From the NCBI GenBank assembly GCA_002787775.1, contig PCUW01000067.1:28948-60947 (forward strand): a stretch of 32,000 nucleotides of DNA, written 5' to 3'. Below are positions 16,512-32,000 of the stretch, one piece after another; positions within the stretch are counted from its first letter, which is position 1; every line of letters begins with the position of its first letter. The notes beneath the pieces were generated by a model. It searched no databases. It was not told the origin of the DNA and was given only the letters and a program-made list of their open reading frames with translations. Source of the DNA: Bdellovibrionales bacterium CG12_big_fil_rev_8_21_14_0_65_38_15. GTDB lineage: Bacteria; Bdellovibrionota; Bacteriovoracia; Bacteriovoracales; Bacteriovoracaceae. The position numbers and the translations under genes are program-made.

Positions 16512-16514
16512 GAG

Positions 16515-16634
16515 AATCTCCCTACAGGGAGATTATATCAGATTATTTGATTAAACCAAGAAAAATCTCCCTAAAGGGAGATAATTAGAGTTTTGATAAT
16601 GAATAGACCTTAAAATCTCCCTGTAGGGAGATTT
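16515..16634. promoter_or_regulatory. Three hipB-proximal operator palindromes, ATCTCCCT-N2-AGGGAGAT
   Basis: AATCTCCCTACAGGGAGATT (16515-16534, overlaps the hipB SD and lies 3 nt from its ATG), ATCTCCCTAAAGGGAGAT (16565-16582), and AAATCTCCCTGTAGGGAGATTT (16613-16634). Centre-to-centre spacing is 49 and 50 bp. Confidence 0.7.
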
Positions 16635-16636
16635 TT

Positions 16637-17938: not shown

Positions 17939-18020
17939 TGCAGGAAAAGTACTTACTCAGCAATAACTTGTAAATCGCTGTGAAACTAAAGTCTTGCACT
18001 AGCCTCTCTTACGCTTACTT

Positions 18021-18055
18021 TATCCCCCGTATCCCGCAAACTGAATACTGAATAC
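18021..18055 (-). repeat. Heptamer-periodic repeat array A (5 units), 5 nt downstream of the ORF6N-1 stop
   Basis: Plus strand reads TATCCCC CGTATCC CGCAAAC TGAATAC TGAATAC. Confidence 0.7.
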
Positions 18056-18060
18056 CGCTC

Positions 18061-18582: not shown

Positions 18583-18698
18583 AAAACACCTCTAGTGATG
18601 CTCTCGCAAAGAGACTGTTCATAAGATTGATTCTAAATTTTTGAAATTAATCGATCATAAGATAAGTGCATTACAATAATGATTCGTGATAAATTCAC

Positions 18699-18726
18699 TT
18701 ATCCCTGAATCCTGGATACCGATAAA
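18699..18726 (-). repeat. Heptamer-periodic repeat array B (about 4 units), 2 nt downstream of the 18729 gene stop
   Basis: TTATCCC TGAATCC TGGATAC CGATAAA, then TCACGCAC (18729-18736), which supplies the stop codon. Confidence 0.65.
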
Positions 18727-18728
18727 AT

Positions 18729-18989
18729 TCACGCACCAAAAACACGTTTTTCAAGTCGATCTAGTCGCTTTTTAAGATCTTGATCATTGTTTTGATCGAA
18801 GTAATCGCGAACAATTTCACGAAGAAGCTGCTGGTAATTCATTCCTCGTTTAACCGCTTCCTGCTTGAGATTGTCTCGCATACTTTCTTCCAAAAAGATG
18901 GTTGTTCGAATTTTTGGTTCAAGCATTAGATCTTCGTCGACTTCAACTTTTCCGTAGCGGATAGCATTCTTTTTAGTCTTCACCTTCAA
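18729..18989 (-). CDS. Putative ribbon-helix-helix (BrnA/CopG-like) antitoxin-type protein, partner of DUF4160-1
   Basis: KIRTTIFLEESMRDNLKQEAVKRGMNYQQLLREIVRDYF resembles RHH antitoxins. Has a 17-nt overlap with the upstream DUF4160 gene. Confidence 0.45.
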   Translation of the reverse strand: MKVKTKKNAIRYGKVEVDEDLMLEPKIRTTIFLEESMRDNLKQEAVKRGMNYQQLLREIVRDYFDQNNDQDLKKRLDRLEKRVFGA

Positions 18990-19251
18990 ACTCCTTCCAA
19001 GCTTGCATCAACTCTTTACGATGCTCTAAGACTTTTACTGAAAGCTTTGTTAAGGCCTTACTTGAAAAGCCAACGCTTGAAATACATTGCCCTGTTATGA
19101 TTTCAAACTTTGCATGAGCTTCACCTGCAATGACATGAACATGGGCCGGTCTGTGATCTTTTGGATAGATACAAAAGCGCACTCTGCCATAAATGATAAT
19201 CGTCGGCACACATTCTCCATACATTATATACATTTTATGAATATCAATCAA
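18973..19251 (-). CDS. DUF4160-domain protein 1. The start is ambiguous and could be the Met at 19233 or 19224.
   Basis: VPTIIIYGRVRFCIYPKDHRPAHVHV matches the DUF4160 N-terminal signature. Confidence 0.6.
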   Translation of the reverse strand: MIDIHKMYIMYGECVPTIIIYGRVRFCIYPKDHRPAHVHVIAGEAHAKFEIITGQCISSVGFSSKALTKLSVKVLEHRKELMQAWKEFEGED

Positions 19252-19341
19252 GATAGTCTTCTTAATGCACTAGATGCATGGATATGCTTGGTTCAAGGCT
19301 GTGGAAGTAATTGAAAATAAAAGACCAGTTGCAAAGCCTAT

Positions 19342-19380
19342 GCAATCTTTAAGGTCGCAATTTGCGACCTTAAAGATTGC
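19342..19380. repeat. 39-nt perfect intergenic palindrome (19-bp arms, 1-nt centre)
   Basis: GCAATCTTTAAGGTCGCAA-T-TTGCGACCTTAAAGATTGC. The core GGTCGCAATTTGCGACC is identical to the coding-sense core of the ORF6N-1 internal palindrome. Confidence 0.9.
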
Positions 19381-19391
19381 AGCTCTTCATC

Positions 19392-19440
19392 ATTCCCCTG
19401 CATCCTGCCTTCCGGATACTGCTCCCTGAATTCTGTTAGC
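19392..19440 (-). repeat. Heptamer-periodic repeat array C (7 units), 2 nt downstream of the 19443 gene stop
   Basis: ATTCCCC TGCATCC TGCCTTC CGGATAC TGCTCCC TGAATTC TGTTAGC, then TCACGCAC (19443-19450), which supplies the stop codon. Confidence 0.7.
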
Positions 19441-19442
19441 CG

Positions 19443-19919
19443 TCACGCACATTTCAGCTGAATATCTGCGCCTAAGATGACGAGCAGCTCTAGCATTTTA
19501 TCCATTGTCTTCTTTGTGTTAGTGGGATCGAGTAGTCTTGCAAGCTGAGAGGGTGAAGTTCTAAGTCTTTTGCAGATTTCATTTTTAGAGAGTTGCGTCG
19601 ACTTCAATTTATTAAGGGCGACATTAGTCATCTCAAAGAGAAACATTTTCTTGAGGTAATCCGGATTTCGATTGTAATCAAGAAATGCATCGAAAGGAAT
19701 GGAATCAACCTCGCCATTTTTAAGCATATACGTCACAGCCTCACTAGCGAGCTCCTGATCGACGAAAATCTCAATAACAGGGTTTTGCCGAGTTGGTTTA
19801 GTCGTAAGCTTTGCAAATGGGATGTTATAGACCTCCCCCTTCACCTCAATGGTAATTTTCTTGGCATAATTATTCACATTAACGGACTTAATTGTGATGT
19901 TGTTTTTTGAGTTCATCAA
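19443..19919 (-). CDS. Two-domain protein with a DUF2442-like N-terminus and a C-terminal XRE-type HTH, partner of DUF4160-2
   Basis: N-terminus ITIKSVNVNNYAKKITIEVKGEVYNIPFAKL. C-terminus LSKNEICKRLRTSPSQLARLLDPTNTKKTMDKMLELLVILG. Overlaps the upstream DUF4160 gene by about 30 nt. Confidence 0.5.
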   Translation of the reverse strand: MMNSKNNITIKSVNVNNYAKKITIEVKGEVYNIPFAKLTTKPTRQNPVIEIFVDQELASEAVTYMLKNGEVDSIPFDAFLDYNRNPDYLKKMFLFEMTNVALNKLKSTQLSKNEICKRLRTSPSQLARLLDPTNTKKTMDKMLELLVILGADIQLKCA

Positions 19920-20136
19920 AGCATCCTTCTATTTCAAGTTGATCAATGATTCGAAGTAATTTCTTCGACATTTGACCTTCTATCGCAACCTTAAGATTGA
20001 TCGCCCACTTGCAAACCATTCGTCCGTCTCGATAAATGTGGATATGGACTGGAGCATGATCATATAAGTACCAAACAATGATGTATCCAGCTCTCTTCAC
20101 CCTACCCAAGATCGACCCCCTTATGTTACCACACAT
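19888..20136 (-). CDS. DUF4160-domain protein 2. The start is uncertain and could be an internal GTG.
   Basis: GYIIVWYLYDHAPVHIHIYRDGRMV matches the DUF4160 signature. Confidence 0.55.
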   Translation of the reverse strand: MCGNIRGSILGRVKRAGYIIVWYLYDHAPVHIHIYRDGRMVCKWAINLKVAIEGQMSKKLLRIIDQLEIEGCFDELKKQHHN

Positions 20137-20146
20137 GGTAACATAA
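20121..20146. promoter_or_regulatory. 26-nt inverted repeat enclosing the annotated start codon of DUF4160-2. Candidate operator or translation-control hairpin.
   Basis: TTATGTTACCA-CACA-TGGTAACATAA, perfect 11-bp arms. The ATG complement lies at 20134-20136. Confidence 0.45.
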
Positions 20147-20274
20147 ATCCAATTTGATATCTTGGTTGTGCTTATTGCAAGGTTGTGCCGTTAAGCTAGC
20201 GAGTTAATTGCTTGAAATAAGAAGGAATAAAAAGGTGTCGATGCTAAAAAATCATAACGCTATTTTGAAACTGT

Positions 20275-20323
20275 GTGCCCCTGGATCCTGAATACCGTAT
20301 ACGGCATACTGAATACTGAAAAA
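20275..20323 (-). repeat. Heptamer-periodic repeat array D (7 units), 14 nt downstream of the ORF6N-2 stop
   Basis: GTGCCCC TGGATCC TGAATAC CGTATAC GGCATAC TGAATAC TGAAAAA, then TCACGCAC at 20328-20335. Confidence 0.7.
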
Positions 20324-20337
20324 AGAATCACGCACCC

Positions 20338-20862
20338 CTAACCTTTTTTGATTCCTATCTTGCTGCGCTTGCCTGGTAAGACTGGTGTTATCTTTTCATC
20401 AAGATCGTCGAGTCGCTCAAAGACAATTTTAAAAAGATGATTTGAGCCAACTTCAAGCTTATCCATGCGCTGTTTAAGGTCATTCTCAAGTAAAAGAAAG
20501 CTTCGAAGTTTGGTAAAGATTCGCATGATGGCGATGTTTACTTGAACCGCTTGTTCAGAGTTAAGCACGCTTGAAAGCATGGCCACGCCGTTTTCAGTGA
20601 ACACCATCGGAGCATATCGCGTCCCTCCATGCTCTAAACTTGAGGTGCCAAATTGGTACCTCAAGTTTGTAACCTCTTGATTATTCAGCTCAAACATAAA
20701 GTCCTCTGGAAACCTGGAGAGATTGCGTCGCACAGCTCTTTTAAGAAGCTTATTTTCCACTCCATAGAGTCGAGCCAAATCCGAATCGAGCATCACCCTC
20801 TGACCACGAATCACGTAGATCATATTCTCAATTTGTGAAATTAACTTTAGTTGATCGCTCAT
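20338..20862 (-). CDS. ORF6N-domain (KilA-N-related) DNA-binding protein, paralog 2
   Basis: MSDQLKLISQIENMIYVIRGQRVMLDSDLARLYGV is colinear with paralog 1. Start set at the internal Met, which has a GGAGG RBS. The first ~40 nt are nearly identical to paralog 1. The ORF track extends to 20883. Confidence 0.75.
   Translation of the reverse strand: MSDQLKLISQIENMIYVIRGQRVMLDSDLARLYGVENKLLKRAVRRNLSRFPEDFMFELNNQEVTNLRYQFGTSSLEHGGTRYAPMVFTENGVAMLSSVLNSEQAVQVNIAIMRIFTKLRSFLLLENDLKQRMDKLEVGSNHLFKIVFERLDDLDEKITPVLPGKRSKIGIKKG
20636..20668. repeat. 33-nt near-perfect palindrome inside ORF6N-2 coding sequence
   Basis: AAACTTGAGGTGCCAA-A-TTGGTACCTCAAGTTT. 16-bp arms with 1 mismatch. Sits at the position homologous to the paralog-1 palindrome. 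Confidence 0.8.
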
Positions 20863-20932
20863 ACACACCTCCGCTTTTACCAAGCAAGCTCATGAGCAAT
20901 TCAATAGATTGTAAGCGTATGAAGTTAGTGGA

Positions 20933-21008: not shown

Positions 21009-21335
21009 TCAGGAGGCCTTAACCAGCTTATAAGAATGAGCGCAAACACTGTCACAAAGACGAATAAGTTCTTCGTCTACAGTCTTGGCCAAGAATAAAC
21101 AAGCTTGCACTTCTTTAGCTGAAGCATAGGCGTAGTTATACATTCTGCGCTTATCAAGTCTCGTTCTTCTAGCATTACCTTCAACCAGGTTTAAGACCAC
21201 TGAAGAGCTAGCACGGCGAAGCTGGTCTTTTAAGTAATAAGGAAGCTTTAGTTTGATGATCTGGTTGTAGAGAAGATCAGCGAGATGCAAGGTGCGAAAG
21301 TTTGAGTCAGTTTGTTTAGATGATTTTTGAAACAT
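21009..21335 (-). CDS. Four-helix-bundle protein (23S rRNA intervening-sequence protein family)
   Basis: LRRASSSVVLNLVEGNARRT...YAYASAKEVQACL pattern is typical of this family, recognised from memory. Confidence 0.65.
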   Translation of the reverse strand: MFQKSSKQTDSNFRTLHLADLLYNQIIKLKLPYYLKDQLRRASSSVVLNLVEGNARRTRLDKRRMYNYAYASAKEVQACLFLAKTVDEELIRLCDSVCAHSYKLVKAS

Positions 21336-21341
21336 GGTGTT

Positions 21342-21408
21342 CTCCTTTTTGAAATTTTTCCTTCACCATAAGTGAGGGAAAATTTCAAAAAGGAGAGCTG
21401 TTTTTTTT
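21342..21408. other. Long hairpin (about 24-bp stem) that includes the SD of the four-helix-bundle gene and is followed by T8 on the plus strand
   Basis: CTCCTTTTTGAAATTTTTCCTTCAC-CATAA-GTGAGGGAAAATTTCAAAAAGGAG (21342-21395; one bulge and one G:T). TTTTTTTT lies at 21401-21408. Confidence 0.6.
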
Positions 21409-21442: not shown

Positions 21443-21922
21443 TCACTGACCTAAGCGAGACTTCAATCGCGTTATAAACCTTTCGGCTCGGCCTGAGCCT
21501 GAAGCTTCATTTAGTATTATTGAACTATCATCGTACCTTGAAGATTTGGTAAGCATTTGATCTTTTTTGTACTCATCCACAAATTTATCAATATCTGCAC
21601 TAGTTTTCATTTTAGGAAAAATGTCTAAGTATTCTGGAGTAGAAACGAGTTCGGTTAAATAAGTTCCTATTCCTTTATCTGATTTATAAGCCGCACCTAA
21701 TTCAAACGGAACCCACATCGAACCTTCTGTATTTCTGGAGAATACAACTATAACATGACTGCACTTACTAAGATTGTTCATAATGTGCTTGGTGATATCA
21801 AACGCAGTCTTCGTTGATGGATCAAGGACATCTAGATAATAGTCTACACATTTAGATTGAAGTAGTGCTGCTAAATTCTTTGCTTTATATTCATCTGTTT
21901 TTCGGTGTGAAATAAAAATCAT
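21443..21922 (-). CDS. TIR-domain protein (stand-alone, TIR_2-like)
   Basis: MIFISHRKTDEYKAKNLAALL...VIVVFSRNTEGSMWVPFELGAAY, with a candidate catalytic Glu in FELG. A GAGGAAG SD overlaps the caspase stop. Confidence 0.7.
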   Translation of the reverse strand: MIFISHRKTDEYKAKNLAALLQSKCVDYYLDVLDPSTKTAFDITKHIMNNLSKCSHVIVVFSRNTEGSMWVPFELGAAYKSDKGIGTYLTELVSTPEYLDIFPKMKTSADIDKFVDEYKKDQMLTKSSRYDDSSIILNEASGSGRAERFITRLKSRLGQ

Positions 21923-21930
21923 AACTTCCT

Positions 21931-22890
21931 CTAAATTTTGTTAGCGTTTACTAAATGCCAGTAAAATTTTCCTAAAGCTGTTAGCTGACACGATTTACTT
22001 TCAATACAGGCCCAATAGAGATCAGGATCAGGTTCTCTATTCACTTTTATAAGACCAACTGTTTGTAATTTTTTGAGAATCTTAAACTTCTCTACATTCT
22101 CTACCTTTGCCTTTCTGTCAGTGTGCTCGTAGCTAGGATCTAGACTAAAAATGTGATCCGGATTGGTAAAAAGCATTTTAAGAGATAACAACTTTGAAAC
22201 ATCAACTTTTTGACCAGCTTGTCTAAGTGGAGTTGAACGAGATACGAAAGACTTAAATAGGGGTCTCTGTTCCCATGCCCCAAAGCTTTGTTCTACATGA
22301 GAGTAAATTCCCGATGGAGTTACAACACCCAACAAATCAGAAGCACTTCCTGAAAGAGCATCACAAACTAGAGAAGTGAAAATACCAGAACCGTTTACCT
22401 CAATCGCACTTTCGCTATCTCTACTAGCCGTTAAAATTGATACTCCTTCTCGAATTGAAACTGCATTGTTACCTAAAGTTGGAATTTGTCCAAAGGTTCC
22501 GCTTTGGCAACAATCTAAAACCACGACGATCTCTTTAACCTGCGAGGCTATAATATGGTTAAGAATATCCTGCATAGGCACGCCTTCATTATATTTCTCA
22601 GCATCTGATGCACAAAGGTACCCACCTAAATTTGTAGCTGTTCCGTGACCAGAAAAATATAAAAAGGCCATATCCGCAGGTTGAGCAAAAAGTTCTTCAA
22701 TTACTTTCTTCAATTCCTTACACGAAATATTTTGCCCATTTTCTGCCGTTAAAATCTTAGCATCAAAGTTCTTTGAACCGTCTGAATTCCTTGAGATCAA
22801 TGCTTCAATATGTTTTGCATCGTTTGCGCAACCATTTAAGTTACTTACATGGACATATTCATTTATACCGATAACCAGAGCCCGCTTCAT
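21931..22890 (-). CDS. Caspase-like (peptidase C14) protease with a ~110-aa C-terminal extension
   Basis: RALVIGINEY, catalytic His in LYFSGHG, catalytic Cys in VLDCCQSG. Start set at the internal Met, whose ATG overlaps the upstream TAA (TAATG). The ORF track extends to 22962. Confidence 0.85.
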   Translation of the reverse strand: MKRALVIGINEYVHVSNLNGCANDAKHIEALISRNSDGSKNFDAKILTAENGQNISCKELKKVIEELFAQPADMAFLYFSGHGTATNLGGYLCASDAEKYNEGVPMQDILNHIIASQVKEIVVVLDCCQSGTFGQIPTLGNNAVSIREGVSILTASRDSESAIEVNGSGIFTSLVCDALSGSASDLLGVVTPSGIYSHVEQSFGAWEQRPLFKSFVSRSTPLRQAGQKVDVSKLLSLKMLFTNPDHIFSLDPSYEHTDRKAKVENVEKFKILKKLQTVGLIKVNREPDPDLYWACIESKSCQLTALGKFYWHLVNANKI

Positions 22891-23309
22891 TAGTATGACC
22901 TCGACCGCATAGTTGGCCTCATTACAATATTTATCGCAGAAGTAATGCTCTCCCAATTCCAAGAAATCACCATGTTTCGAGGCAATCCCGTAGGTAAAGG
23001 TGTTCTTGTATTGGCTCCATCAACATATACTCCAAATACAGGTATATTATGTGCCGCTGCAAATCGTATCTCTTTAATTACACCTTTGGCGTAAGCTGTC
23101 TGCCTTCCAACTAGTACTATCATTAGGTTACACCGACTGATCTTTTCGGCAATTTTTCTTTCCCAAATAGATTGAGGAAGTGCCTCTTTTGAAGACCAAT
23201 CTGCAATATTAAAAGGTGTTCGACTGTTTTTTGCCTGACCAGAAAAAAGCAACTTATGGTTGGAATTATTATCAAAATCAAAACTAATAAAAGTTCTTGG
23301 AGTGCTCAT
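22890..23309 (-). CDS. ThsB-type TIR-like protein (DUF1863 / MTH538 TIR-like family)
   Basis: TFISFDFDNNSNHKLLFSGQAKNSRTPFNIADWS...CNLMIVLVGRQTAYAKGVIKEIRFA...PVFGVYV pattern. Confidence 0.7.
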   Translation of the reverse strand: MSTPRTFISFDFDNNSNHKLLFSGQAKNSRTPFNIADWSSKEALPQSIWERKIAEKISRCNLMIVLVGRQTAYAKGVIKEIRFAAAHNIPVFGVYVDGANTRTPLPTGLPRNMVISWNWESITSAINIVMRPTMRSRSY

Positions 23310-23318
23310 TTTGTATCC

Positions 23319-23516
23319 TTAGTTTTTATCTTTTGGTGGGCACGGATCGTTCCCATAACTGTTTTTTTCACTAATTTGTCCATTCGATTTATGAATGACG
23401 TGCTCAGTTTCAAAGCGCTTCGCTTTTGTACGATGAGTAGAAATTGTCACCCCACCTTGTTTGTTGACCCAACTATTACTATTCGGAACTGTATGAACTG
23501 GTTTTTTACCTGGCAT
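23319..23516 (-). CDS. DUF2188-family small protein (shortened)
   Basis: VHTVPNSNSWVNKQGG...VIHKSNGQISEKNSYGNDPCPPKDKN matches the DUF2188 C-terminal signature. AAGGAG RBS lies 8 nt upstream. Confidence 0.6.
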   Translation of the reverse strand: MPGKKPVHTVPNSNSWVNKQGGVTISTHRTKAKRFETEHVIHKSNGQISEKNSYGNDPCPPKDKN

Positions 23517-23539: not shown

Positions 23540-23565
23540 CTGGTTAAATTAATCAGATTAACCAG
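23540..23565. promoter_or_regulatory. Nested inverted repeat just upstream of the DUF2188 RBS. Candidate operator of the TIR-caspase operon.
   Basis: CTGGTTAA-N10-TTAACCAG, containing the inner palindrome TTAATCAGATTAA (minus-strand reading TTAATCTGATTAA). Confidence 0.3.
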
Positions 23566-23570: not shown

Positions 23571-23601
23571 AATAAAAAAACCGCATAAACACGGCTTATG
23601 C
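23571..23601 (-). terminator. Candidate intrinsic terminator ending the hsdMSR-GHKL-STAS transcription unit
   Basis: Minus strand reads GCATAA-GCCGTGT-TTATGC, then GG TTTTTTT ATT. The stem is short (6 bp) and AT-rich. Confidence 0.45.
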
Positions 23602-23648
23602 TTGAATGATATGTCAACATTCTCCTTAAGTCAAATTTTTTAAGCAGA

Positions 23649-24209
23649 TTATTTTACTGATGAAAACAGATATTCGAGTCCGCCGCTTTCGGCTGTTTCT
23701 TTAGAGCCAATTAAGAGACCTTGATTTAGAAGTTTTTTCAGCTTTCCACTTGCATTTGGGGCAGAGAGACCAAATTTCTCTGCAATCATAGAAGTCGTTA
23801 CATTTTCTCTACTCATAATATAACTGAAAATCTTCTGCGCATCTGAACTAAGCTCTGGACCAATGACTCTATAATCTTTACCACTTAGTACCAATAACGG
23901 TTGGTCCTTGAATCGTGCAGCATAATCCCAGTTATCTATCATATCGTCATTTGCAAAGTCTTTTAAATAAAAACTAATCTCCCCTCGCTTCTCTCTCGCT
24001 AATGAGATAACGCTTTCTCTTGGAAAAGAGGCATCAGTTCGTTTAATTCCTTTTAAAGAGATACCAATAACTTTAGCCTGTGGGTATTTCCCAATCTCTT
24101 TTTTTAGCTTTGCATGAACTGCCTGACCTTGATCATTTCCATAGGGCGAGTCATCTCTAACTAAATCATATAGAGAAATTATTATTTTTTTCTGGTTCAT
24201 TAGCTTCAT
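23649..24209 (-). CDS. STAS-like (DUF4325) domain protein with a C-terminal winged-helix
   Basis: AKVIGISLKGIKRTDASFPRESVISL resembles the DUF4325/anti-sigma-antagonist-like core. The C-terminus TTSMIAEKFGLSAPNASGKLKKLLNQGLLI resembles a wHTH. Start set at the Met 4 nt after the ATPase stop; 24200 is also possible. The ORF track extends to 24248. Confidence 0.5.
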   Translation of the reverse strand: MKLMNQKKIIISLYDLVRDDSPYGNDQGQAVHAKLKKEIGKYPQAKVIGISLKGIKRTDASFPRESVISLAREKRGEISFYLKDFANDDMIDNWDYAARFKDQPLLVLSGKDYRVIGPELSSDAQKIFSYIMSRENVTTSMIAEKFGLSAPNASGKLKKLLNQGLLIGSKETAESGGLEYLFSSVK

Positions 24210-24213
24210 TGAA

Positions 24214-25311
24214 TCAGGTTGAGTCTGATGCGTCAATATCAAAATCAAAACAGATATGTGTTCCTGAAATTTCTACAAGGTTAGGTAACATTTTAACTGG
24301 TAACAACTCTCCATTTTTAAAAATAAACTCTAAACTGAAATTATTCTGTCGAACAGAATACTTCGCATTAAATTTCAAAGCCTTTTCTTTACTGCTTTTA
24401 AATCCTAACCCGTGTCCAGATTTAGTTCCAAATCTTGTGATCCGGCCTTCACTCATTGCCTTTTTTACTAATTCAATATCTGAAAGCTCTAAAAGCTTTG
24501 GATAGAATTTTTTCAGAACAGGTCTCAATGTTGTTGCGATACCGACCCCATTGTCGGAAACGGTTGTTTGAATATGTGGAGGGCTACTTTTTGTTTTTCC
24601 TTTATATCTTTGAAGAGCTGCAAAACCCTTTAGTGAAGATCCACTGTGTTCTTTTATATTGCCAATTAGCTCAGATAATATTGTAAAAGCCGGATCTTCA
24701 TAATTATCGCTTGATAATGAAATAAATGTATCTGTAAGATGTCTAACTAGCTTCTTATTATCTGTCTCTGGATCAACTTCTCCGAACTCTACAAGATTTC
24801 CACTTTTGCCTTTATACGTTTTAGCAGATGATATTTTTGGGCGTTTAGGGAGAACATTTACTTTATCACTCAAATGATCAAAGAAACCGGCTCGATTCCA
24901 ATATGCTTTGGAGCTATTATTACTAGATAGGTCAATTGTAACTTCTTTCTTGCTTAGTACTAATTGATTGCATAGTGCCAAGAATCGAGCAATTGCTTCA
25001 AGCATAAACTTGCAATTTTCAGGAACAACAAACCGAATCTTATCAATTGTGTGGATGTCTTCTATCTCTATAGAAAGAGCCTCTTCAAATAAAAAACAAG
25101 TAACCCAACAATTATCAAATTTAACTACAATTTCTTCTGGCATTAATACCCACTCGAAATTTTCATTTTGATGAAACTCGACATCTTTGTGCTTGTGCAT
25201 AAGTGCGCTGACATCGCTTCGATCGAAACCTAGTTTTCTCGCAATAGCCCTAGCCTTTAAAGGACCTTCATCTTCAAGAAGTTTTTTTATCTGCTTTAGA
25301 GTTTTATCCAT
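24214..25311 (-). CDS. GHKL (histidine-kinase-like) ATPase with an N-terminal winged-helix. No sensor, DHp or phospho-acceptor His domain recognised.
   Basis: N-terminus LKARAIARKLGFDRSDVSALMHK (wHTH). N-box ELIGNIKEH, G1 VSDNGVGI, G2 KSGHGLGF. Confidence 0.7.
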   Translation of the reverse strand: MDKTLKQIKKLLEDEGPLKARAIARKLGFDRSDVSALMHKHKDVEFHQNENFEWVLMPEEIVVKFDNCWVTCFLFEEALSIEIEDIHTIDKIRFVVPENCKFMLEAIARFLALCNQLVLSKKEVTIDLSSNNSSKAYWNRAGFFDHLSDKVNVLPKRPKISSAKTYKGKSGNLVEFGEVDPETDNKKLVRHLTDTFISLSSDNYEDPAFTILSELIGNIKEHSGSSLKGFAALQRYKGKTKSSPPHIQTTVSDNGVGIATTLRPVLKKFYPKLLELSDIELVKKAMSEGRITRFGTKSGHGLGFKSSKEKALKFNAKYSVRQNNFSLEFIFKNGELLPVKMLPNLVEISGTHICFDFDIDASDST

Positions 25312-25345: not shown

Positions 25346-28300
25346 TTATTTCCCACTGCCACTTCCCTTAACCAACATATCAAAAACAATTTTAGCGAAG
25401 TTCTTGGCCTTATTTGGATCTGACAGAACCTGCATCATAAGATTTTGATGAGCTTCGCTGCTTCCCATAATGGCGTCGTCGACAGCTTTGGGGAAATCCC
25501 CTAGCATAGCCTGCTCTGGTGAGTTATTGGCAATTTGATCCATGACCTTCGAATTTTCTCTGACTTTATCTCTGATAGTAGTGGCATAATTAACCAGATC
25601 TTTTTCAGTAAGCTCATCAGTAACAAAAAGCTCATTTAAACGCTGAATAATTTGAGAGAGAAACTCTTCTTTGCGATCTTTGGCTTTAGCTGTGCCAAGA
25701 CCCTCTCCTGGAGTTAAGCCAGCACCCTCTTCAGAATTTTTCAACATCAAGTTTTGTTGACGAATTTTTGAAAGTCTATAATGACTGAGAACTATGCCAC
25801 TTAGGTCGACATGATCTTCATCGAGAATTGACTCTCTAAGCATTGGACGCAAGTTTCTAGCAAACAGGCTCAGTTTTTCAAGCTCCTTATCATCGTAATC
25901 TACGATTTGGGACATAAATTCGTAGTATCTGACAAAGGTACCTAAGTCTTTCTTGAAAATTTCTAGAGCATCCTTCGCCTCTTTAGCTTCTTTAAAACTA
26001 TTTTCAGCATTAGCAATTAAAACTTCATCCCCAGACTTCTTAGCTCGCTCAAACAATTCTCTTGTCTCTTTATAAGTATCAAGCGCCAGGTTATACCGTC
26101 CTTTCCAGCGCTCGACTGCAGGCTTACATATATTTGCGATTGCCGCTGCACTTTTACTTTTTTGGAAAAAAGCTTCGACAAATTGCTCTACCTCTCGCCA
26201 TTCATAAATTCTTGAACCATTGAGTTTCTCGAATAGATCATAGATCAGGTTTGGATCAGAGACATCCGTAAGTGACGCTGTCTTGTAGTAAACTTGAAAG
26301 GCGCTCAGGACTTCTTCAGGTTCATTGAAGAAATCTAAGACAAAGGTTCCTGACTCTGCCTTACCGGGATATGTTCGATTTAGGCGCGAAAGAGTCTGCA
26401 CACACTCCAAACCGCCCAATTTTTTATCAACATACATCGCACATAGCTTTGGTTGATCAAACCCAGTTTGAAACTTGTTTGCCACCAACATCACCTGATA
26501 ATCTTCTGAGTCAAAGGCTTTACGCATATCTCGGCCTTTTAAACCTGGGTTCATGTTCGTTTCAGTAAACTTTTCACCAAGTAAGCCATCAACATTGGGA
26601 TCGCTTTCACTAAAAGTCACTTCACCAGAAAATGCTACCATGGCACAAATATGTGAATAGCCTTTATCAACAATATATTTATCAAAAGCCAGCTTATAGC
26701 GAACAGCTTCTTTTCTAGAGCTAGTCACCACCATGGCTTTTGCTTGACCATTCAATAAGCTCATCACATTGTCTTTAAAGTGCTCGACAATAACCATAAC
26801 CTTTTGAGAGATATTATACTCATGTAAGCGCACCCACTGATTAAGCTTCACTTTTGCTTTTTTACTCTCTACTTCTTGATCTGCTGCACCCAGTTTTTGC
26901 GCTAAATTATAGGCAACCTTATAGTTAGTGTAGTTTTTCAACACATCGAGAATGAAACCCTCTTCAATTGCCTGTCGCATACTATAAACATGATAGGCTT
27001 CTGGCTTGTTTTCTAACGAAGTTGGTTCTGCAGGATTTGGTAAGCGGCCAAAAAGTTCGAGTGTTTTTGACTTAGGTGTTGCTGTAAATGCAAAGTAACT
27101 GAGATTTTTTGTCGCTCTTCGAGATTCAACAGCGGCATCCAAAATATCCTCTGCTGAGAGTTCTTCATCCTCATCAATTGATTCAAAACTTAATACTTCT
27201 TTCAATTTACGAGCAGTTGAACCAGTCTGTGATGAGTGTGCCTCATCCGCTATAATGGCATAGTGCCTATCTTTCAAATTTACGCTGTTTTCAATAGCTT
27301 TGATTACAAATGGAAAAGTCTGAATGGTCACAATAATAATCGGCTGTGAAGTCTCTAGCGCTGCTGCCAGTTTTTCAGATTTAGAACCCTCACCCTCTTT
27401 CCTGTTAATTCGGCCGATGATGCCATCAGTGTGCTCTAATTGATAAATAGTGTCTTGCAACTGGTCATCAAGAACTGTTCTGTCTGTGACAATAATCACT
27501 GAGTTAAAAATTTTGTCGCCACTGCCATCATATAATGCCGATAATTGGTGGGCGAGCCACGCAATCGAATTGGACTTCCCCGAGCCTGCACTATGTTGGA
27601 TGAGATACTTTTGACCTGGACCTTCTAAGCGAGCAGCAGAAATAAGCTTCGTCACTACATTCCATTGATGATATCGAGGAAAAATCATGGATTCTTTTTT
27701 ATATTTTCGTCCATCATAGTCTTCTTTTTCAGTAATTTCTAAATGCATAAACCTAGAAAGAATTTTTAAAAGGTTATCGGGCAGTAAAACTTCATTCCAA
27801 AGGTAGTCAGTAGCGTATTGATTAACATCTTCAGGCACTTCATTGCCAGATCCACCGTCTTTAGTACCTTTGTTGAAAGGTAAGAAATAAGTCTCGTCAC
27901 CCTCCAATCTAGTCGCCATATAAACTTCATACTGACTGACTGCAAAGTGAACCAAAGCTCCTCGTTTAAAAGTTAGTAGTGGTTCTGTTTTTTTAGTTTC
28001 CGGGTCTTTTGAAAAACGGGTTGTCTTATACTGCTTAATAGCATTTTCAACTGACTGTTTAAACTCGGACTTAAGTTCAAGTGTCACTACCGGCAGACCA
28101 TTAACAAATAAAACTAAGTCAATTCGCCACTTCTTAGCTCTAACTCCAGTTTCAGCTAGATGCTCATCAGTTGCCCAAGGACTATAAACTAATTCGGGTA
28201 CGACTCGCAGAATGTTTTTTTTATATCTACCAATCGTGCCTGGGTTTAATTCATGATCGGGTTTAAATTGGCAAAGGCTAAATTTTGTTCCACGATCTTT

Positions 28301-28618
28301 AATTCCGTGACGAAGAACACCCAGTGTGCCAAAGGTGCGCATTTCTTTATTGGCAGCATTTGGATCGGCCTTTTCTAATTGTGAAGATACACGCTCTAAA
28401 AACTTTTTATCAGTATCACTAGGGTAGATCTTACTAAACTTCTGCCACTGCTCATCTTGGGTGTTTTTAACAAAAGTTAGAAGATCTTCGGAATATAAGG
28501 CTAGCTTACAATCATACTTTTCTGGATTACCGAGTTGCCAACCATTAGCAAGCATTTGCCCAATTATATCGTTTTGAAATACAAACTCTCTGGACTTATC
28601 TCCCCCGTAGTAATTCAT
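25346..28618 (-). CDS. hsdR: Type I restriction endonuclease subunit R
   Basis: PD-(D/E)xK region RIDLVLFVNGLPVVTLELK. Helicase motif I HSAGSGKS and motif II IADEAHSSQ. 1090 aa. ATGA overlap with hsdS. Confidence 0.95.
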   Translation of the reverse strand: MNYYGGDKSREFVFQNDIIGQMLANGWQLGNPEKYDCKLALYSEDLLTFVKNTQDEQWQKFSKIYPSDTDKKFLERVSSQLEKADPNAANKEMRTFGTLGVLRHGIKDRGTKFSLCQFKPDHELNPGTIGRYKKNILRVVPELVYSPWATDEHLAETGVRAKKWRIDLVLFVNGLPVVTLELKSEFKQSVENAIKQYKTTRFSKDPETKKTEPLLTFKRGALVHFAVSQYEVYMATRLEGDETYFLPFNKGTKDGGSGNEVPEDVNQYATDYLWNEVLLPDNLLKILSRFMHLEITEKEDYDGRKYKKESMIFPRYHQWNVVTKLISAARLEGPGQKYLIQHSAGSGKSNSIAWLAHQLSALYDGSGDKIFNSVIIVTDRTVLDDQLQDTIYQLEHTDGIIGRINRKEGEGSKSEKLAAALETSQPIIIVTIQTFPFVIKAIENSVNLKDRHYAIIADEAHSSQTGSTARKLKEVLSFESIDEDEELSAEDILDAAVESRRATKNLSYFAFTATPKSKTLELFGRLPNPAEPTSLENKPEAYHVYSMRQAIEEGFILDVLKNYTNYKVAYNLAQKLGAADQEVESKKAKVKLNQWVRLHEYNISQKVMVIVEHFKDNVMSLLNGQAKAMVVTSSRKEAVRYKLAFDKYIVDKGYSHICAMVAFSGEVTFSESDPNVDGLLGEKFTETNMNPGLKGRDMRKAFDSEDYQVMLVANKFQTGFDQPKLCAMYVDKKLGGLECVQTLSRLNRTYPGKAESGTFVLDFFNEPEEVLSAFQVYYKTASLTDVSDPNLIYDLFEKLNGSRIYEWREVEQFVEAFFQKSKSAAAIANICKPAVERWKGRYNLALDTYKETRELFERAKKSGDEVLIANAENSFKEAKEAKDALEIFKKDLGTFVRYYEFMSQIVDYDDKELEKLSLFARNLRPMLRESILDEDHVDLSGIVLSHYRLSKIRQQNLMLKNSEEGAGLTPGEGLGTAKAKDRKEEFLSQIIQRLNELFVTDELTEKDLVNYATTIRDKVRENSKVMDQIANNSPEQAMLGDFPKAVDDAIMGSSEAHQNLMMQVLSDPNKAKNFAKIVFDMLVKGSGSGK

Positions 28619-29922
28619 GCTGTGACTTCCTCAGTGGTTCGGGTTATTTTTTGTGCAGTCGTTTGTTTTGGTGGTTGCCAATCGCATACGTCGATTTTTC
28701 CAGTGACGGCGGCGGAGATGAGAGCCTCGCGCCGCTCTTTGAACAATTCGATTAATGACGCAGCCTTGTCTATCAAACTATTAATTTTGGGGATTTCATT
28801 TAGTAAATAGTTCGCAATATTTTTTTGTTCTTCAGTATCTATAACAGGTAGGTCAATCTGAGAAAAATTTGCGAATCGTAATGCCTGACCATCACGAACT
28901 AAATTTGTAGTACTTTGCAGTGCTTGAATATAAGGTCCACTTTTGAACAGATACTTAAAGTAATCTACATAAACTGAACTTGCTGGTACTAATGGAACAT
29001 AGGCTGAACTTACTGCACCTCTGACTGCACTAAACTCAATACCTCCCTGAAAACTTCGCATACTAATGACAAAATCATTTGGCTCAACAAGCTTCAAAAT
29101 ATCGTGTCCAACTTGAACTCTCACTACTTTTTGACCTTCAAGTTCCATGAATTTTTTTTGAGGGATTATTCCATGTTTCTGAGAGGCCGTTAACATTTCT
29201 TCACCAATATTTGCTCTTAGTTTTCTCTCCGCAAATAACCACTTACTATTTATTAGCCCCCAATGCTTCGGCACCTCTCCCAGCCACTCAACACCTGAAT
29301 CTTTCATCGGAGCATCAGGATCTAATCCTTTAGTCACGGCATGGCTGATCACGGCTTGACGTTTTTCTTTTAGTAATTTTATGAGATTTTGTTGCTTTTC
29401 TATTAATTCGTCGATTTTTGCGGTTTCGTAATCAAGAAACTCAATAATTTTCTTCTGAGTTACAGCGTTCGGCAAAGAAAGTTCAAAGTTTAAAAACTGT
29501 GGCAGCCTTAAAGAATCTACGGTAGACTTCGCATTGCCTTCAAGGGCCACTTTATAAAAATTACTAGATAAGTAATAATATACAAATTTTCCTAAAACCA
29601 ATGTGAAATTATTCAGCATATAAACTCGCTGATGGTAGTCGAACTTTCCAATATAATAATGAAAGACCTTGCCAACCCCGACTCCATCGCCCGCAGTTAA
29701 GACAGCTTCGCAATCTTCTCCAACTGAATCAATTCTTTCTACGTTTTGTGAACGAACAAAGAAAGGATATTGACCATCATCTATTGCATTTTCAGTATCC
29801 CTAGAACCTGTTTTTACCTTACAGATAAATTTTAATTTTTTTATTAACCATTGAGTTGGTATCTGTCCCAGCCACTCAACGCCACTGTCCTTATATTCTT
29901 CATAAGCCTTGTATTTTCCCAT
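28615..29922 (-). CDS. hsdS: Type I R-M specificity subunit S (two target-recognition domains)
   Basis: Duplicated GVEWLG(Q/E)(I/V)P..W entry motifs. Two conserved helical spacers (IDELIEKQQNLIKLLKEKRQAVISHAVTKGLD and INSLIDKAASLIELFKERREALISAAVTGKIDV). Confidence 0.9.
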   Translation of the reverse strand: MGKYKAYEEYKDSGVEWLGQIPTQWLIKKLKFICKVKTGSRDTENAIDDGQYPFFVRSQNVERIDSVGEDCEAVLTAGDGVGVGKVFHYYIGKFDYHQRVYMLNNFTLVLGKFVYYYLSSNFYKVALEGNAKSTVDSLRLPQFLNFELSLPNAVTQKKIIEFLDYETAKIDELIEKQQNLIKLLKEKRQAVISHAVTKGLDPDAPMKDSGVEWLGEVPKHWGLINSKWLFAERKLRANIGEEMLTASQKHGIIPQKKFMELEGQKVVRVQVGHDILKLVEPNDFVISMRSFQGGIEFSAVRGAVSSAYVPLVPASSVYVDYFKYLFKSGPYIQALQSTTNLVRDGQALRFANFSQIDLPVIDTEEQKNIANYLLNEIPKINSLIDKAASLIELFKERREALISAAVTGKIDVCDWQPPKQTTAQKITRTTEEVTA

Positions 29923-32000
29923 TACGCATTTAACTCCTGAAGCATTCCCAAGATTTGATTACTAACTTTGAACAAGTCAGCGTCAATTTCGGCTAGGTCA
30001 CGTGGTCGTCTATAAATATAAAAATGACGATTAAATGGAATCTCATAGCCAACGATGCCGATCTCACCGTCACTCTTATCAACTTTACTTGCATCAATCC
30101 AGGCATCTGGTACATGTGGAAGAACCTCATTCTTGAAGTAAGCTTCGTTGATGTCATTAACTTTTCTTGAAGGATCAAGCGCGATGTTTTCAAAATCTCG
30201 AAGCTCTCCATCCGCTTTATATTCAACAATTTCGCCATTCACTTCAAACAGGCCATAAAGCGGCTTAGCTTTACCTTTATGAATCTTCTTAATTACTTTT
30301 TCAGCATCTGGATTCTTCCAGCTAACGGCATTAGTTATTTGTTTTTTCTCTTTTGCTTCAAGTTTTACTTTCGATTTCTTTATCATCTCTTCAAAACGAT
30401 TCATATCATCATGCTGATCTTTGCCAATTACTTTTTGCAGAGCCTTTGCTTGATTAAGAATTTGTCTTTGCTCAAGCCAGATTTTTTTGTCTAAAACATC
30501 TTTAACATGCTTTTCTTTAAGTTCCGTGAAATGAGTTTTAATATACTTACGAATACTATCGACATGTTCTTTAAGGACGCCATAATCCTTATCTGTCCAT
30601 TTTTCTCCATATTCTTTATAAACCCACTTCATAACTTCATTAAGCGGCTTAGGTGCAAACCTTAACTCTTCAATTCTTTCATCACTAAACTGATATGATT
30701 CTCTTAAGGGTCTCTCTATTGTGAGTCTGCGATAACCGAACTCATGAGTTTCGAATATTTTACTAGAAAAAGTTTTTTCGTCTTCTGCTTTTGGATTCGC
30801 TGATTGACGTCCGCGACTGCTTTTTTGATCTTGTGGCTTATCAAGGACTTGAGTTTTGACTTCTTCAAACTCTCCAAAGCATTTTGTAATGATTCTAATA
30901 TCATCATCACTCATCTCATGTCTCTTTGAGCCTAAAGACTTTCGCATCTTGCTATATAGATTCACTCCATTGATCAGTTGAACTTTACCTTTACGCTCCT
31001 TAACTTTTTTATTGGAGAGCACCCAAACATAAGTAGCAATGCCAGTGTTGTAAAACATATCAGTTGGCAAAGCGACAATCGCCTCCAAAAGATCAGCCTC
31101 CAGAATATAACGTCTGATCTCTGACTCCCCTGAGCCTGCACCACCTGTAAACAATGGAGATCCGTTTAGAATAATTCCGATTCGGGCACCGCCTTCTTTG
31201 GCGTCTCTGAGCTTACTAATTAGATGGAGTAAAAATAAAAGAGAACCATCAGAAACACGCGGCAAGCCTGGGCCAAAGCGCCCATTGAATCCTTTAGATT
31301 TATGTTCCTTAATAATCTGTTCATCGATCTTCTTCCAATCAACACCAAATGGTGGATTGGAAAGCATATAATCAAATTTTTCTGAGTAAAGGTGATCCGA
31401 AGATAATGTATTACCGTGTTTAATATTACTAACATCTTGCCCTTTGATCAGCATGTCTGCCTTACAGATCGCGTAACTTTCAGGGTTGAGTTCTTGGCCG
31501 AAGGCTCGCATTACAGCTTTTGGGTTCAGCTCATGCACGTACTCCATACCTGAAGAGAGAAAGCCGCCTGTTCCGGCCGTTGGGTCATAAATAGTTCGGA
31601 TCACTCCTGGCTTTGTCAGAACTTCATCATCTTCCATAAAAACCAAGGAAGTGGTCAGTCGAACAATGTCTCTAGGAGTAAAGTGCTCTCCAGCAGTTTC
31701 ATTTGAACTCTCTGCAAATTTTCGGATAAGCTCCTCAAACACTAAGCCCATTTCGTGGTTAGAGACCATCTTGGGACTCAAGTCCATTTGCTGAACCTTT
31801 TGAACAACTTTATATAGCAAATTGGCATCATCCAGCTGACCAATAAACTCTGCAAAGTTAAAATACTCAAAGATCTCTCTAGCATCTTTTGAGAAGTCTT
31901 GAATATAGGACTCAAGATTGTCCTTAATATCCTTTTCCCCGAGTTTTGAGAGATCCATTTTTGATTTATTGAAAAACGACAAGCCATCTGTAGCACGCAA
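29922..32000 (-). CDS. hsdM: Type I R-M N6-adenine DNA methyltransferase subunit M (large form). The 5' end lies beyond the window.
   Basis: Motif [12 protein letters not shown] and motif IV LSNPPFG. TAATG overlap with hsdS. The ORF is open at the window edge. Confidence 0.95.

Follow-up and report, generated by a model that had tools for sequence, protein, structure and literature searches.

A probable type IV Thoeris operon headed by a DUF2188 gene behind a predicted CapK/CapS switch in a Bdellovibrionales genome

[quoted passage not shown] A preliminary description of the window read this block as a four-gene candidate defence operon with unusual features, while noting that a TIR protein paired with a caspase-like protease is known as type IV Thoeris. 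We asked whether the locus is a system of its own or a member of a catalogued type. We conclude, with a probability of roughly 85%, that it is a type IV Thoeris operon (thsB, thsE and a second thsB) headed by a DUF2188 gene, under a CapK/CapS DNA-damage switch and directly downstream of a type I restriction-modification (R-M) system. This reading is based on homology, conserved catalytic residues, gene order, an operator with its covariation, and identity with catalogued metagenome-assembled genomes (MAGs).

Gene layout and assignment to type IV Thoeris

The tight layout of the four genes and all three of the junctions noted earlier, in which a stop codon meets a Shine-Dalgarno (SD) sequence or a start codon, agree with the coordinates (Table 1). 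Nine nucleotides, GGATACAAA, follow the TAA of the DUF2188 gene, which overlaps an AAGGA; the TAA of thsB overlaps the caspase ATG (CTAATG); and the eight nucleotides after the caspase TAG, AGGAAGTT, give GAGGAAG ahead of the second TIR gene. The domain calls for the four proteins were upheld by Pfam matches that all exceed the gathering scores (PF09954 DUF2188, E 5e-7; PF08937 ThsB_TIR, 6e-10; PF00656 Peptidase_C14, 4e-19; PF13676 TIR_2, 1e-10) and by PADLOC, whose matches in gene order are PDC-S16, ThsB, caspase and ThsB. The adjoining type I R-M system is also present, with HsdM, HsdS and HsdR found directly upstream of capK. The "TA-rich island" in which the locus had been placed does not stand, as GC content is ~35-41% throughout the window, and the locus is thus no compositionally distinct island. 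The hairpin 3' of the operon has a predicted RNA fold of -30.4 kcal/mol (z -7.3), is kept in another locus (L001), and holds the SD of the next gene within its 3' arm; it may mark the end of the operon or act in translational control.

Table 1. Features of the locus, in window coordinates and in the order of transcription.
Feature	Position	Strand	Description
type I R-M genes	25346..32000	-	adjoin capK on its upstream side; Pfam
hsdM	29922..32000 (continues past window edge)	-	Pfam N6_Mtase/HsdM_N
hsdS	28615..29922	-	Pfam Methylase_S
hsdR	25346..28618	-	Pfam HSDR_N/ResIII/SWI2_SNF2/T1R_D3
capK	24214..25311	-	365 aa; predicted HTH-STAS-GHKL Ser kinase; HATPase_c E 4e-6
capS	23649..24209	-	STAS-wHTH transcriptional repressor; 186 aa from ATG 24209
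TTAA-N10-TTAA site	23626..23643	-	just past capS stop; overlaps -35-like TTGACT; pattern match
promoter-like TTGACT-17-TATCAT	23634..23606	-	sigma-70-like consensus scan
intrinsic-terminator-like hairpin + T-run	23583..23601	-	between capS and Thoeris operon; consensus scan
wide palindrome CTGGTTAA-N10-TTAACCAG	23540..23565	-	predicted to serve as CapS operator and as promoter for the DUF2188-Thoeris operon
DUF2188 gene	23516..23319	-	65 aa; operon gene 1; PF09954 and PADLOC PDC-S16
thsB (ThsB_TIR-type)	23309..22890	-	139 aa; predicted signal-producing TIR; catalytic Glu80
thsE, caspase-like protease	22890..21931	-	319 aa; dyad His82 + Cys128; C-terminal winged-helix-like domain
second thsB (TIR_2-type)	21922..21443	-	159 aa; Glu74 within WVPFELG
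hairpin, 22-bp stem	21341..21396	-	3' of operon; inverted repeat 95% complementary
PF05635 four-helix-bundle protein gene	21335..21009	-	next gene after operon

The resemblance to type IV Thoeris noted earlier is borne out by the caspase and by thsB. The caspase shares 40% identity over 318 aligned residues (E 1e-79), C-terminal domain included, with the caspase of an E. coli type IV Thoeris operon. This reference, drawn from an E. coli genome collection, lies next to a TIR gene that matches the cloned EcTIR of E. coli 328 at 100% identity across 399 nt; the caspases of E. coli 165 and E. coli 328 were assumed to be identical. The thsB product aligns with PsTIR at 25% identity (E 1e-10), with E80 opposite the catalytic E79 that Rousset et al. 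mutated to Q (10.1101/2024.10.24.620036); because the identity is just 25%, its signal could be another ADPR isomer. Under the MacSyFinder rule of Rousset et al., the caspase must have a TIR_2 or ThsB_TIR gene no more than one gene away, and here such a gene is found on both sides of it.

All six proteins of the locus (those of capK, capS and the four operon genes) are exact matches to proteins of the Bdellovibrionales MAGs CG12, CG22 and CG11, the capK product being PIP89013.1 of the CG12 MAG. These three MAGs are listed as "capKS + Type IV Thoeris, downstream of R-M" in Dataset EV2 of Chambers et al. 2026 (EMBO J, PMC13373217). According to the same paper, R-M genes immediately precede capKS in 88 of 443 cases, with the source MAG flagged "Yes", and type IV Thoeris is the capKS cargo in 12 of the 443, the source MAG among them. 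The system type, the regulator and the locus itself are thus already published. That the four genes nonetheless form a new defence system apart from the catalogued types is extremely improbable: neither PADLOC v2 nor NCBIfam names a system for the locus, but PADLOC v2 is older than type IV and yields generic "caspase" and "ThsB" matches only, both the caspase and ThsB have homologues among the validated type IV components, the two-TIR architecture has been tabulated (Rousset et al., 10.1101/2024.10.24.620036), and the locus has been catalogued (Chambers et al., PMC13373217). The preliminary description had itself named a catalogued subtype with two TIRs as the outcome that would make the locus known rather than novel, and this is the outcome we found.

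The protease keeps the intact C14 dyad claimed for it, with the His of SGHG and the Cys of DCCQSG invariant among 28 homologues; Cys128 is taken as the counterpart of PsCaspase C129, without a direct alignment to PsCaspase. The AF2 model (pLDDT 85) adopts a caspase/paracaspase fold, with MALT1, caspases and metacaspases as its best Foldseek matches (E down to 1e-13). The PF00656 match stops at residue 212, leaving ~105 aa that are kept in every one of the 28 homologues compared. In the model (pLDDT 85), the best matches of this part are the winged-helix proteins MarR, PadR and eS10 (E 0.02-0.1, TM ~0.5), which makes it weakly winged-helix-like. The ~110-aa wHTH-like extension described earlier is therefore present, but it is not unusual, being the standard ThsE domain in all homologues. 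Rousset et al. proposed the C-terminal caspase domain as the N7-cADPR sensor (10.1101/2024.10.24.620036; a Science 2025 paper in the citation of Yirmiya et al.). When the caspase and the two TIRs were searched against PDB sequences, the only matches were eukaryotic metacaspases and one weak TIR match, with no solved ThsE; an NCBIfam search with the caspase returned no type IV Thoeris family, its sole match, caspase_w_EACC1, being below cutoff.

As a defence system, the locus adds little to what is known. It does provide a clean natural example of three layers, type I R-M, CapK/CapS and type IV Thoeris, an arrangement in keeping with the published proposal that an abortive-infection system is primed by DNA damage or by restriction products.

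CapK/CapS genes and the predicted operator region

The two genes directly 5' of the operon, missed in the preliminary description, encode CapK, a GHKL kinase, and CapS, a STAS-wHTH repressor. The Pfam evidence for CapK is its HATPase_c match, and the HTH-STAS-GHKL architecture is predicted. The Asn of its N-box, ELIGN, is at position 218, and the active-site residue mutated in E. roggenkampii CapK is numbered N218 too. In other loci, capK homologues are always followed by a capS homologue, 5' of type IV Thoeris or Bub operons. CapS matches PDB 9Z72 (E. roggenkampii CapS) over its full length with a phmmer E of 3e-50, and with 1.5e-70 when a profile of seven homologues is used; its residues 126-170 match Pfam MarR_2/HTH families. 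Homologues suggest a start at ATG 24200, which would give 183 aa, and the capS start lies 4-13 nt past the capK stop. Chambers et al. report a conserved phospho-acceptor Ser on STAS helix 2 of CapS, S54 in E. roggenkampii (PMC13373217). The CapS studied here has two candidate residues, the serine in its invariant FPRES motif and that in ISL.

The CapS binding site was defined as TTAA-N10-TTAA by ChIP-seq, fluorescence polarisation and EMSA (Chambers et al., PMC13373217). By itself this pattern is no more frequent than chance would have it (4 found, 3.0 expected). Sigma-70 and terminator scan counts in the region are at chance level; only sites with cross-locus conservation were retained. One of these is the wide palindrome, in which TTAA half-sites lie 10 bp apart at 23544-23561, with an internal TTAA and extended arms (CTGGTTAA/TTAACCAG). 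Each of the four capKS-bearing loci in the alignment retains it, with a symmetric change to CTGATTAA..TTAATCAG in Bdellovibrio bacteriovorus (L091), and it is absent in aligned loci L012 and L037, both of which are without capKS. We predict from these alignments that the wide palindrome is the CapS operator.

The TTAA-N10-TTAA site beside the capS stop is kept in L001, L088 and L091, and in the same loci the pairing of the terminator-like hairpin is preserved via compensatory changes. Because this hairpin stands between the best sigma-70-like match and the operator, that match is uncertain as the operon promoter. A narrow TTAAnTTAA site was not found between capK and capS, where the gap is 4-13 bp and no match lies near 24200-24220; just two TTAAnTTAA matches occur in the window, one of them within the wide palindrome. 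Chambers et al. describe the narrow site for the E. roggenkampii locus and do not state it as family-defining (PMC13373217). The block of capKS, DUF2188 and Thoeris genes recurs in four further contexts (L001, L088, L091 and L140).

The second TIR and the DUF2188 leader gene

The two TIR proteins are clearly different, as had been noted: they match PF08937 and PF13676, respectively, and their pairwise similarity is not significant (E 0.17). The thsB product belongs to the TIR family found directly 5' of the caspase in most species-representative loci, and the TIR_2 protein shows weak similarity to EcTIR (E 1e-3). The TIR-caspase-TIR order, which the preliminary description took to be unusual, recurs when gene neighbourhoods are compared. 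A TIR lies directly upstream of the caspase in 73 of 83 loci and directly downstream too in 16 of those, where the downstream TIRs come from varied TIR families. Rousset et al. (10.1101/2024.10.24.620036) provide an "Additional TIR" column in their Table S1, where numerous rows place TIRs at caspase-1 and caspase+1.

By analogy with multi-ThsB type I systems, the two dissimilar TIRs would most likely allow a broader set of phages to be sensed. We consider it improbable that the second TIR instead acts as an effector by depleting NAD+, or serves the first TIR as a decoy or negative regulator. Such a role could account for its sequence being unrelated to the first TIR, for its additional ~75-aa C-terminal tail and for its being the fastest-diverging member of the block (27% identity in B. 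bacteriovorus), and NADase effectors are known among bacterial TIRs in other systems (Yirmiya et al., 10.64898/2025.12.03.692087). However, the protein retains the catalytic Glu in its usual motif, is short and is without a recognisable regulatory domain, and fast divergence is also the expectation for a phage sensor. Moreover, downstream TIRs elsewhere share families (EcTIR-like and PsTIR-like) that serve as the sole upstream ThsB in other loci.

The DUF2188 protein matches PADLOC PDC-S16 with E 9e-16 over its conserved C-terminal half. The allele in the window carries a 30-bp in-frame deletion, leaving it 10 aa shorter than those of L001, L012 and L037; in L001, the repeat AAGCGAAG flanks the segment that is deleted here, and the 10 aa lost are conserved residues that include an otherwise invariant Ala. 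The shortened allele is identical on 24 contigs. A PDB search with DUF2188 gave no meaningful match. Two candidate relatives were also considered. YegP, a small protein encoded after capKS in 57 cases (Chambers et al., PMC13373217), was rejected at an hhalign probability of 0.2%. TadIV-1, a phage N7-cADPR sponge of 92 aa that has no recognisable domain and occurs in Straboviridae only, was dropped on its published description, without direct comparison. A DUF2188 leader gene, as described earlier, is indeed present and is found repeatedly, but it is not confined to type IV Thoeris. Its close relatives stand first in operons of four kinds (type IV Thoeris, ThsB+8xMP, Bub and CBASS), and distant ones occur alone in prophages. 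Beyond the window, DUF2188 is found in just 3 of 83 sampled type IV loci, all from Bdellovibrionales, and 19 further small ORFs upstream of ThsB in other loci include no DUF2188 members. Judged by these sequence relatives, DUF2188 behaves as a promoter-proximal gene common to several signalling-type defence operons.

What might such a gene do? A possible but tentative answer is that DUF2188 is no passenger but a functional accessory of signalling-type abortive-infection operons, acting as a basal-signal buffer or threshold-setter, or as a sensor chaperone or modulator. Consistent with this, its conservation exceeds that of its neighbours (66-72% identity, or 74-82% in the multiple alignment, versus ~50% for the caspase and 35-63% for ThsB); it is always gene 1 and translationally near the next gene in all four operon kinds, with or without capKS; and PADLOC lists it as a defence candidate. 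Lau et al. place DUF2188 downstream of CapH/CapP, crediting the defence link to Burroughs & Aravind 2020. On the other hand, most type IV loci are without it, the validated E. coli and Pseudomonas type IV systems work as two genes (Rousset et al., 10.1101/2024.10.24.620036), and no structure, motif or partner points it to an activity. It is also unrelated to YegP, and the window's allele has lost 10 internal residues, yet persists unchanged across contigs. A somewhat more doubtful proposal is that the KNSYGNDPxPPKDK clade of DUF2188 is a functional front-end shared by type IV Thoeris, ThsB+8xMP, Bub and CBASS systems, which might tune basal activity or provide a link to the operon regulator. 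If so, the distant phage-borne copies would interfere with that step.

Far less plausible is that the locus interleaves two Thoeris modules, with thsB and the caspase forming type IV and DUF2188 serving as a second effector that answers the TIR_2 protein, after a type predicted by Yirmiya et al. In the available part of that work, DUF2188 is listed as a putative effector, the term appearing at least 33 times in Table S1, and it occurs in a Sediminibacterium island with six ThsB (10.64898/2025.12.03.692087). One metagenome locus (L172), in which a 279-aa TIR lies beside a small DUF2188 gene, shares a scaffold with a row of theirs. Yet the TIRs in those DUF2188 rows, as far as the available part extends, belong to a different, canonical TIR cluster; close relatives of DUF2188 (72-87% identity) also head Bub and CBASS operons without a TIR (L142, L143 and L147); and distant relatives (37-52% identity), which lie on 42 viral contigs and also in a prophage of Paenibacillus, have no TIR within 4-5 kb. 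In L012, the order is DUF2188-ThsB-caspase, and the 160-aa ORF downstream has no TIR match. Killing activity is also not obvious for a soluble, charged protein of 65-75 aa. The DUF2188 gene is a useful lead: it is small and highly conserved, stands first in several signalling defence operons that are unrelated to one another, and is present in prophages too. Should it modulate these systems, it would count as a common accessory that published operon schemes have so far shown as a "white box".

Proposed mechanism and comparison with named systems

On the reading of the locus as a CapK/CapS-controlled type IV Thoeris operon, we propose the following mechanism, whose biochemical steps are all taken over from published systems. 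In unstressed cells, a CapS dimer on the TTAA-N10-TTAA operator before DUF2188 would keep the operon low. Single-stranded DNA arising from DNA damage or infection would activate the CapK kinase, which would phosphorylate the STAS domain of CapS, so that the dimer dissociates and transcription rises. One or both TIRs would then detect a phage component and convert NAD+ to a cyclic ADP-ribose isomer, which is N7-cADPR in the type IV systems studied. The C-terminal domain of the caspase-like protease would bind the signal, and the activated protease would cut cellular proteins indiscriminately, aborting the infection. In type IV Thoeris, N7-cADPR from the TIR activates Arg-specific, promiscuous proteolysis, and phages are resisted by abortive infection (Rousset et al., 10.1101/2024.10.24.620036).

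Multi-ThsB type I Thoeris, reportedly treated by Ofir et al. in 2021, is said to use several dissimilar TIR genes for one effector (SIR2-SLOG). The locus resembles it in pairing several dissimilar TIR genes with one effector, but differs in having a caspase-like protease in place of SIR2-SLOG, flanked on either side by the TIRs. Islands with several dissimilar TIRs and one effector are likewise described by Yirmiya et al. 2025 (10.64898/2025.12.03.692087). The closest likeness is to type IV Thoeris: a short TIR lies 5' of, and overlaps, a ~320-aa caspase-like protease with the same C-terminal domain, the catalytic Glu, His and Cys are kept, an optional extra TIR follows the caspase, and the setting is a defence island. 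Unlike the validated systems, this one has a Bdellovibrionota host, a ThsB distant from PsTIR and a DUF2188 gene in front.

As in CapK/CapS (PMC13373217), a gene for a predicted HTH-STAS-GHKL kinase is followed by one for a STAS-wHTH repressor, TTAA-N10-TTAA stands between capS and the cargo, R-M lies just upstream, and the cargo is type IV Thoeris. In contrast to the described arrangement, the locus is without TTAAnTTAA between capK and capS, and its stretch from capS to the operator holds a terminator-like hairpin and another TTAA-N10-TTAA; the DUF2188 gene at the locus receives no mention from Chambers et al. The predicted "DUF2188" Thoeris of Yirmiya et al. (10.64898/2025.12.03.692087), in the available part of Table S1 and Fig. 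6E, also has a small DUF2188 gene beside a TIR gene. That type is unverified, and its TIRs there are canonical, of cluster 2507529800. An HMM built from the listed TIRs matches loci L172 and L219, and the window TIRs match the ThsB and TIR_2 families of type IV loci and, judged by those families, do not supply the cluster 2507529800 partner. Here, DUF2188 instead fronts a complete type IV system, and its close relatives head non-TIR operons. Finally, PADLOC PDC-S16 is a stand-alone single-gene candidate, whereas the DUF2188 gene described here is the first gene of an operon.

The four-gene operon as type IV Thoeris

The four minus-strand genes proposed as a tightly coupled operon have open reading frames and junctions exactly as the preliminary description gave them: the spacers are 9 nt, -1 nt (an overlap) and 8 nt, and the AAGGA and GAGGAAG motifs overlap the stop codon of the preceding gene. 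Each protein exceeds the Pfam gathering score in its own family, the Pfam and PADLOC assignments agree with the families first named by eye, and HsdM/S/R of the reported type I restriction-modification (R-M) system lie directly upstream.

We used EcTIR DNA from Table S2 of Rousset et al. (bioRxiv 10.1101/2024.10.24.620036), who described type IV Thoeris, to locate that operon in 14 E. coli genomes. The window caspase (ThsE) is 40% identical over 318 residues (E 1e-79) to the "caspase family protein" encoded beside EcTIR. The TIR ahead of the caspase can be aligned with PsTIR (E 1e-10), which places E80 opposite PsTIR E79, whose mutation abolishes defence (Rousset et al.). The second TIR keeps Glu74 and weakly resembles EcTIR; as had been noted, the two TIRs are clearly different, without significant pairwise similarity.

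An AF2 model of the caspase (pLDDT 85) has a caspase/paracaspase fold. A search of 5.8 billion proteins gave 1337 homologues; the matches listed, 314-321 aa long, align along 100% of the query, so the C-terminal extension is a constant feature of the family. Modelled alone, the last 98 residues (pLDDT 85) best match the MarR, PadR and eS10 winged helices, with E of only 0.02-0.1. The description of this extension as wHTH-like is therefore plausible, but applies to every ThsE protein, not to this one in particular; Rousset et al. proposed that the extension binds N7-cADPR.

The bracketing of the protease by two TIRs, previously called unusual, proves to be a recurrent arrangement. When we classified the neighbours of the caspase in the window, related contigs and 80 species-representative loci of GTDB genomes, the order was TIR-caspase at 57 loci, TIR-caspase-TIR at 16 and caspase-TIR at 2, with no adjacent TIR at 8, some at contig ends. 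Table S1 of Rousset et al. has an "Additional TIR" column and many rows, notably from Pseudomonas and Bacteroidetes, with TIRs at caspase-1 and caspase+1. The downstream TIRs come from varied families, including some that elsewhere serve as the sole TIR.

Across the six-gene block (operon plus capK and capS), the two TIRs diverge fastest between the window and both L088 and the Bdellovibrio bacteriovorus locus L091 (CP168967.1). In L091 the TIRs are 27-35% identical to those of the window, and CapK, CapS, DUF2188 and caspase 51-68%. Such sequence divergence is consistent with the TIRs being phage-facing sensors.

The CapK/CapS module and flanking elements

Two genes upstream of the operon, encoding 365 and 186 aa, had been overlooked. 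The 186-aa protein profile matches PDB 9Z72/9Z71 (E 1.5e-70), entries from Chambers et al. (EMBO J 2026; PMC13373217), in which CapK is an ssDNA-activated HTH-STAS-GHKL kinase and CapS a STAS-wHTH repressor released by phosphorylation. The N-box Asn of the window CapK, at 218, occupies the same position as in their CapK. Because the pair accompanies the operon in four further contexts (L001, a 97% relative; L088, with AbiE and conjugation genes adjoining; L091, from a complete chromosome; and L140), and the 365-aa protein has homologues in front of the Bub (ubiquitin-like) operons of L137 and L138, capKS is a portable module. Chambers et al. found it ahead of 443 operons, 12 of them type IV Thoeris, and directly downstream of R-M in 88 cases. 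In L137 and L140, capK starts 7-11 nt after the R-M stop (hsdS and hsdR, respectively), and in the window 35 nt past hsdR; such tight spacing suggests that capKS are co-transcribed with the R-M genes or reached by read-through.

According to Chambers et al., the binding site of CapS is a "wide palindrome", TTAA-N10-TTAA, located in the promoter that follows capS. The predicted operator here, CTGGTTAA-N10-TTAACCAG, is kept in 4/4 aligned loci carrying capKS, is altered symmetrically in the B. bacteriovorus copy (CTGATTAA..TTAATCAG), and is absent from L012 and L037, both DUF2188-ThsB-caspase loci without capKS. Between capS and this operator lie a second such site and a promoter-like TTGACT-17-TATCAT directly followed by a terminator-like hairpin, which shows compensatory changes across loci. 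It is an odd arrangement, in which the promoter comes first, then the terminator and then the operator.

Beyond the operon, a near-perfect 22-bp inverted repeat, also kept in L001, precedes a PF05635 (23S rRNA IVS/four-helix-bundle) gene. Folded as RNA (-30.4 kcal/mol, z -7.3), the repeat hides the Shine-Dalgarno of that gene. Further island genes follow.

Features of the window and of comparison loci
Locus	Feature	Coordinates	Strand	Remarks
Window	DUF2188 gene	23516..23319	minus	PF09954; PDC-S16
Window	thsB (ThsB-type TIR)	23309..22890	minus	PF08937; ThsB
Window	thsE (caspase)	22890..21931	minus	319 aa; ATG within CTAATG; PF00656; caspase
Window	second thsB (TIR_2)	21922..21443	minus	PF13676; ThsB
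Window	Predicted CapS operator	23540-23565		
Window	Second TTAA-N10-TTAA	23626-23643		
Window	Terminator-like hairpin	23583-23601		
Window	Promoter-like element and hairpin	23583-23643		
Window	Inverted repeat	21341-21396		Between TIR_2 stop and PF05635 gene
Window	Further island content	14680-20883		
Window	ORF6N protein	20338-20883		PDC-S05
Window	Second ORF6N protein	18061-18582		
Window	DUF4160 proteins	19888-20136; 18973-19251		
Window	RNase_T-GIY-YIG fusion	16637-17938		
Window	HipA kinase toxin	15041-16303		
L001	DUF2188 gene, long allele	5345-5572		
L137	R-M/capK spacing	1821-6666		
L140	R-M/capK spacing	1-6684		
L143	DUF2188-headed operon	3501-6907		Bub
L142	DUF2188-headed operon	324-1902		Bub
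L147	DUF2188-headed operon	1408-3320		CBASS
L148	ThsB_TIR, 8xMP	3713-4689		DUF2188 first
L149	ThsB_TIR, 8xMP	3733-4712		DUF2188 first
L150	ThsB_TIR, 8xMP	3463-4301		DUF2188 first
L092-L094	Single DUF2188	5001-5237		KNSYGNDP clade
L095-L136	Single DUF2188			KNSYGNDP clade

The DUF2188 gene

DUF2188 is the only operon component without an explanation in the published work we found. Among 83 caspase loci, it is present only in those of Bdellovibrionales (window, L001, L012, L037). There it is more conserved than its neighbours, at 66-72% identity by pairwise BLAST (caspase ~50%, ThsB 35-63%) and 74-82% in a multiple alignment.

We surveyed metagenomic relatives, counting only loci whose sequence continues for at least 1.5 kb past the gene. 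In the clade at or above 72% identity, a TIR comes directly next in 5/7, belonging either to type IV Thoeris or to a pair of ThsB and the octameric membrane protein 8xMP; in the remaining two, DUF2188 opens a Bub operon (L143, preceded by capKS) and a CBASS operon (L147, SMODS and Cap15). A shorter contig, L142, has DUF2188 heading a Bub operon with capS upstream. These first-gene relatives are 72-87% identical, and the Bub operons encode Multi_ubiq, E2 or DUF6791-ThiF, DUF6527 and HNH. The ThsB_TIR gene with 8xMP (PF24838) directly after it could represent a Thoeris variant whose effector is a membrane protein. Below 70% identity, a TIR is present in 1/39, namely L172, on a scaffold that Yirmiya et al. 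(bioRxiv 10.64898/2025.12.03.692087) list under an unverified "DUF2188" Thoeris type.

DUF2188 also occurs as a single gene: neither a TIR nor a caspase lies close to it in 42 IMG/VR viral contigs or in a Paenibacillus prophage. In the prophage it lies on the opposite strand between HNH/terminase and other phage genes, where moron or (anti-)defence genes are typically found. Earlier papers reported DUF2188 beside CBASS and downstream of CapH/CapP (the latter by Lau et al.). A kinship with YegP was considered and rejected; the two are unrelated.

The window allele encodes 65 aa instead of 75 through a 30-bp in-frame deletion that removes ten conserved residues (AKAEIEGRRQ), including an otherwise invariant Ala, and is identical on 24 contigs. 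An 8-bp repeat, AAGCGAAG, flanks the segment in L001 and suggests that the loss arose through microhomology. DUF2188 is thus a promoter-proximal gene common to several signalling-type defence operons rather than specific to Thoeris, and we estimate the probability of a genuine role in the mechanism at about one in four.

Proposed mechanism and known systems

In the best-supported scheme, CapS would repress the operon at the wide palindrome until CapK, activated by ssDNA, lifts repression; one or both ThsB proteins would detect phage and synthesise a cADPR isomer, and ThsE, switched on via its C-terminal domain, would degrade cellular proteins. Every biochemical step is carried over from work on E. 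coli, Pseudomonas and Enterobacter; what the locus itself displays is the homology, the catalytic residues, the gene order and a conserved operator.

All six proteins exactly match consecutive GenBank proteins of the Bdellovibrionales MAGs CG12_big_fil_rev_8_21_14_0_65_38_15 and CG22_combo, and most also those of CG11. The lead left by the locus is DUF2188. The candidate defence operon is real and right in kind, but not novel: Dataset EV2 of Chambers et al. already lists these three MAGs as capK/capS with "Type IV Thoeris", R-M upstream "Yes".
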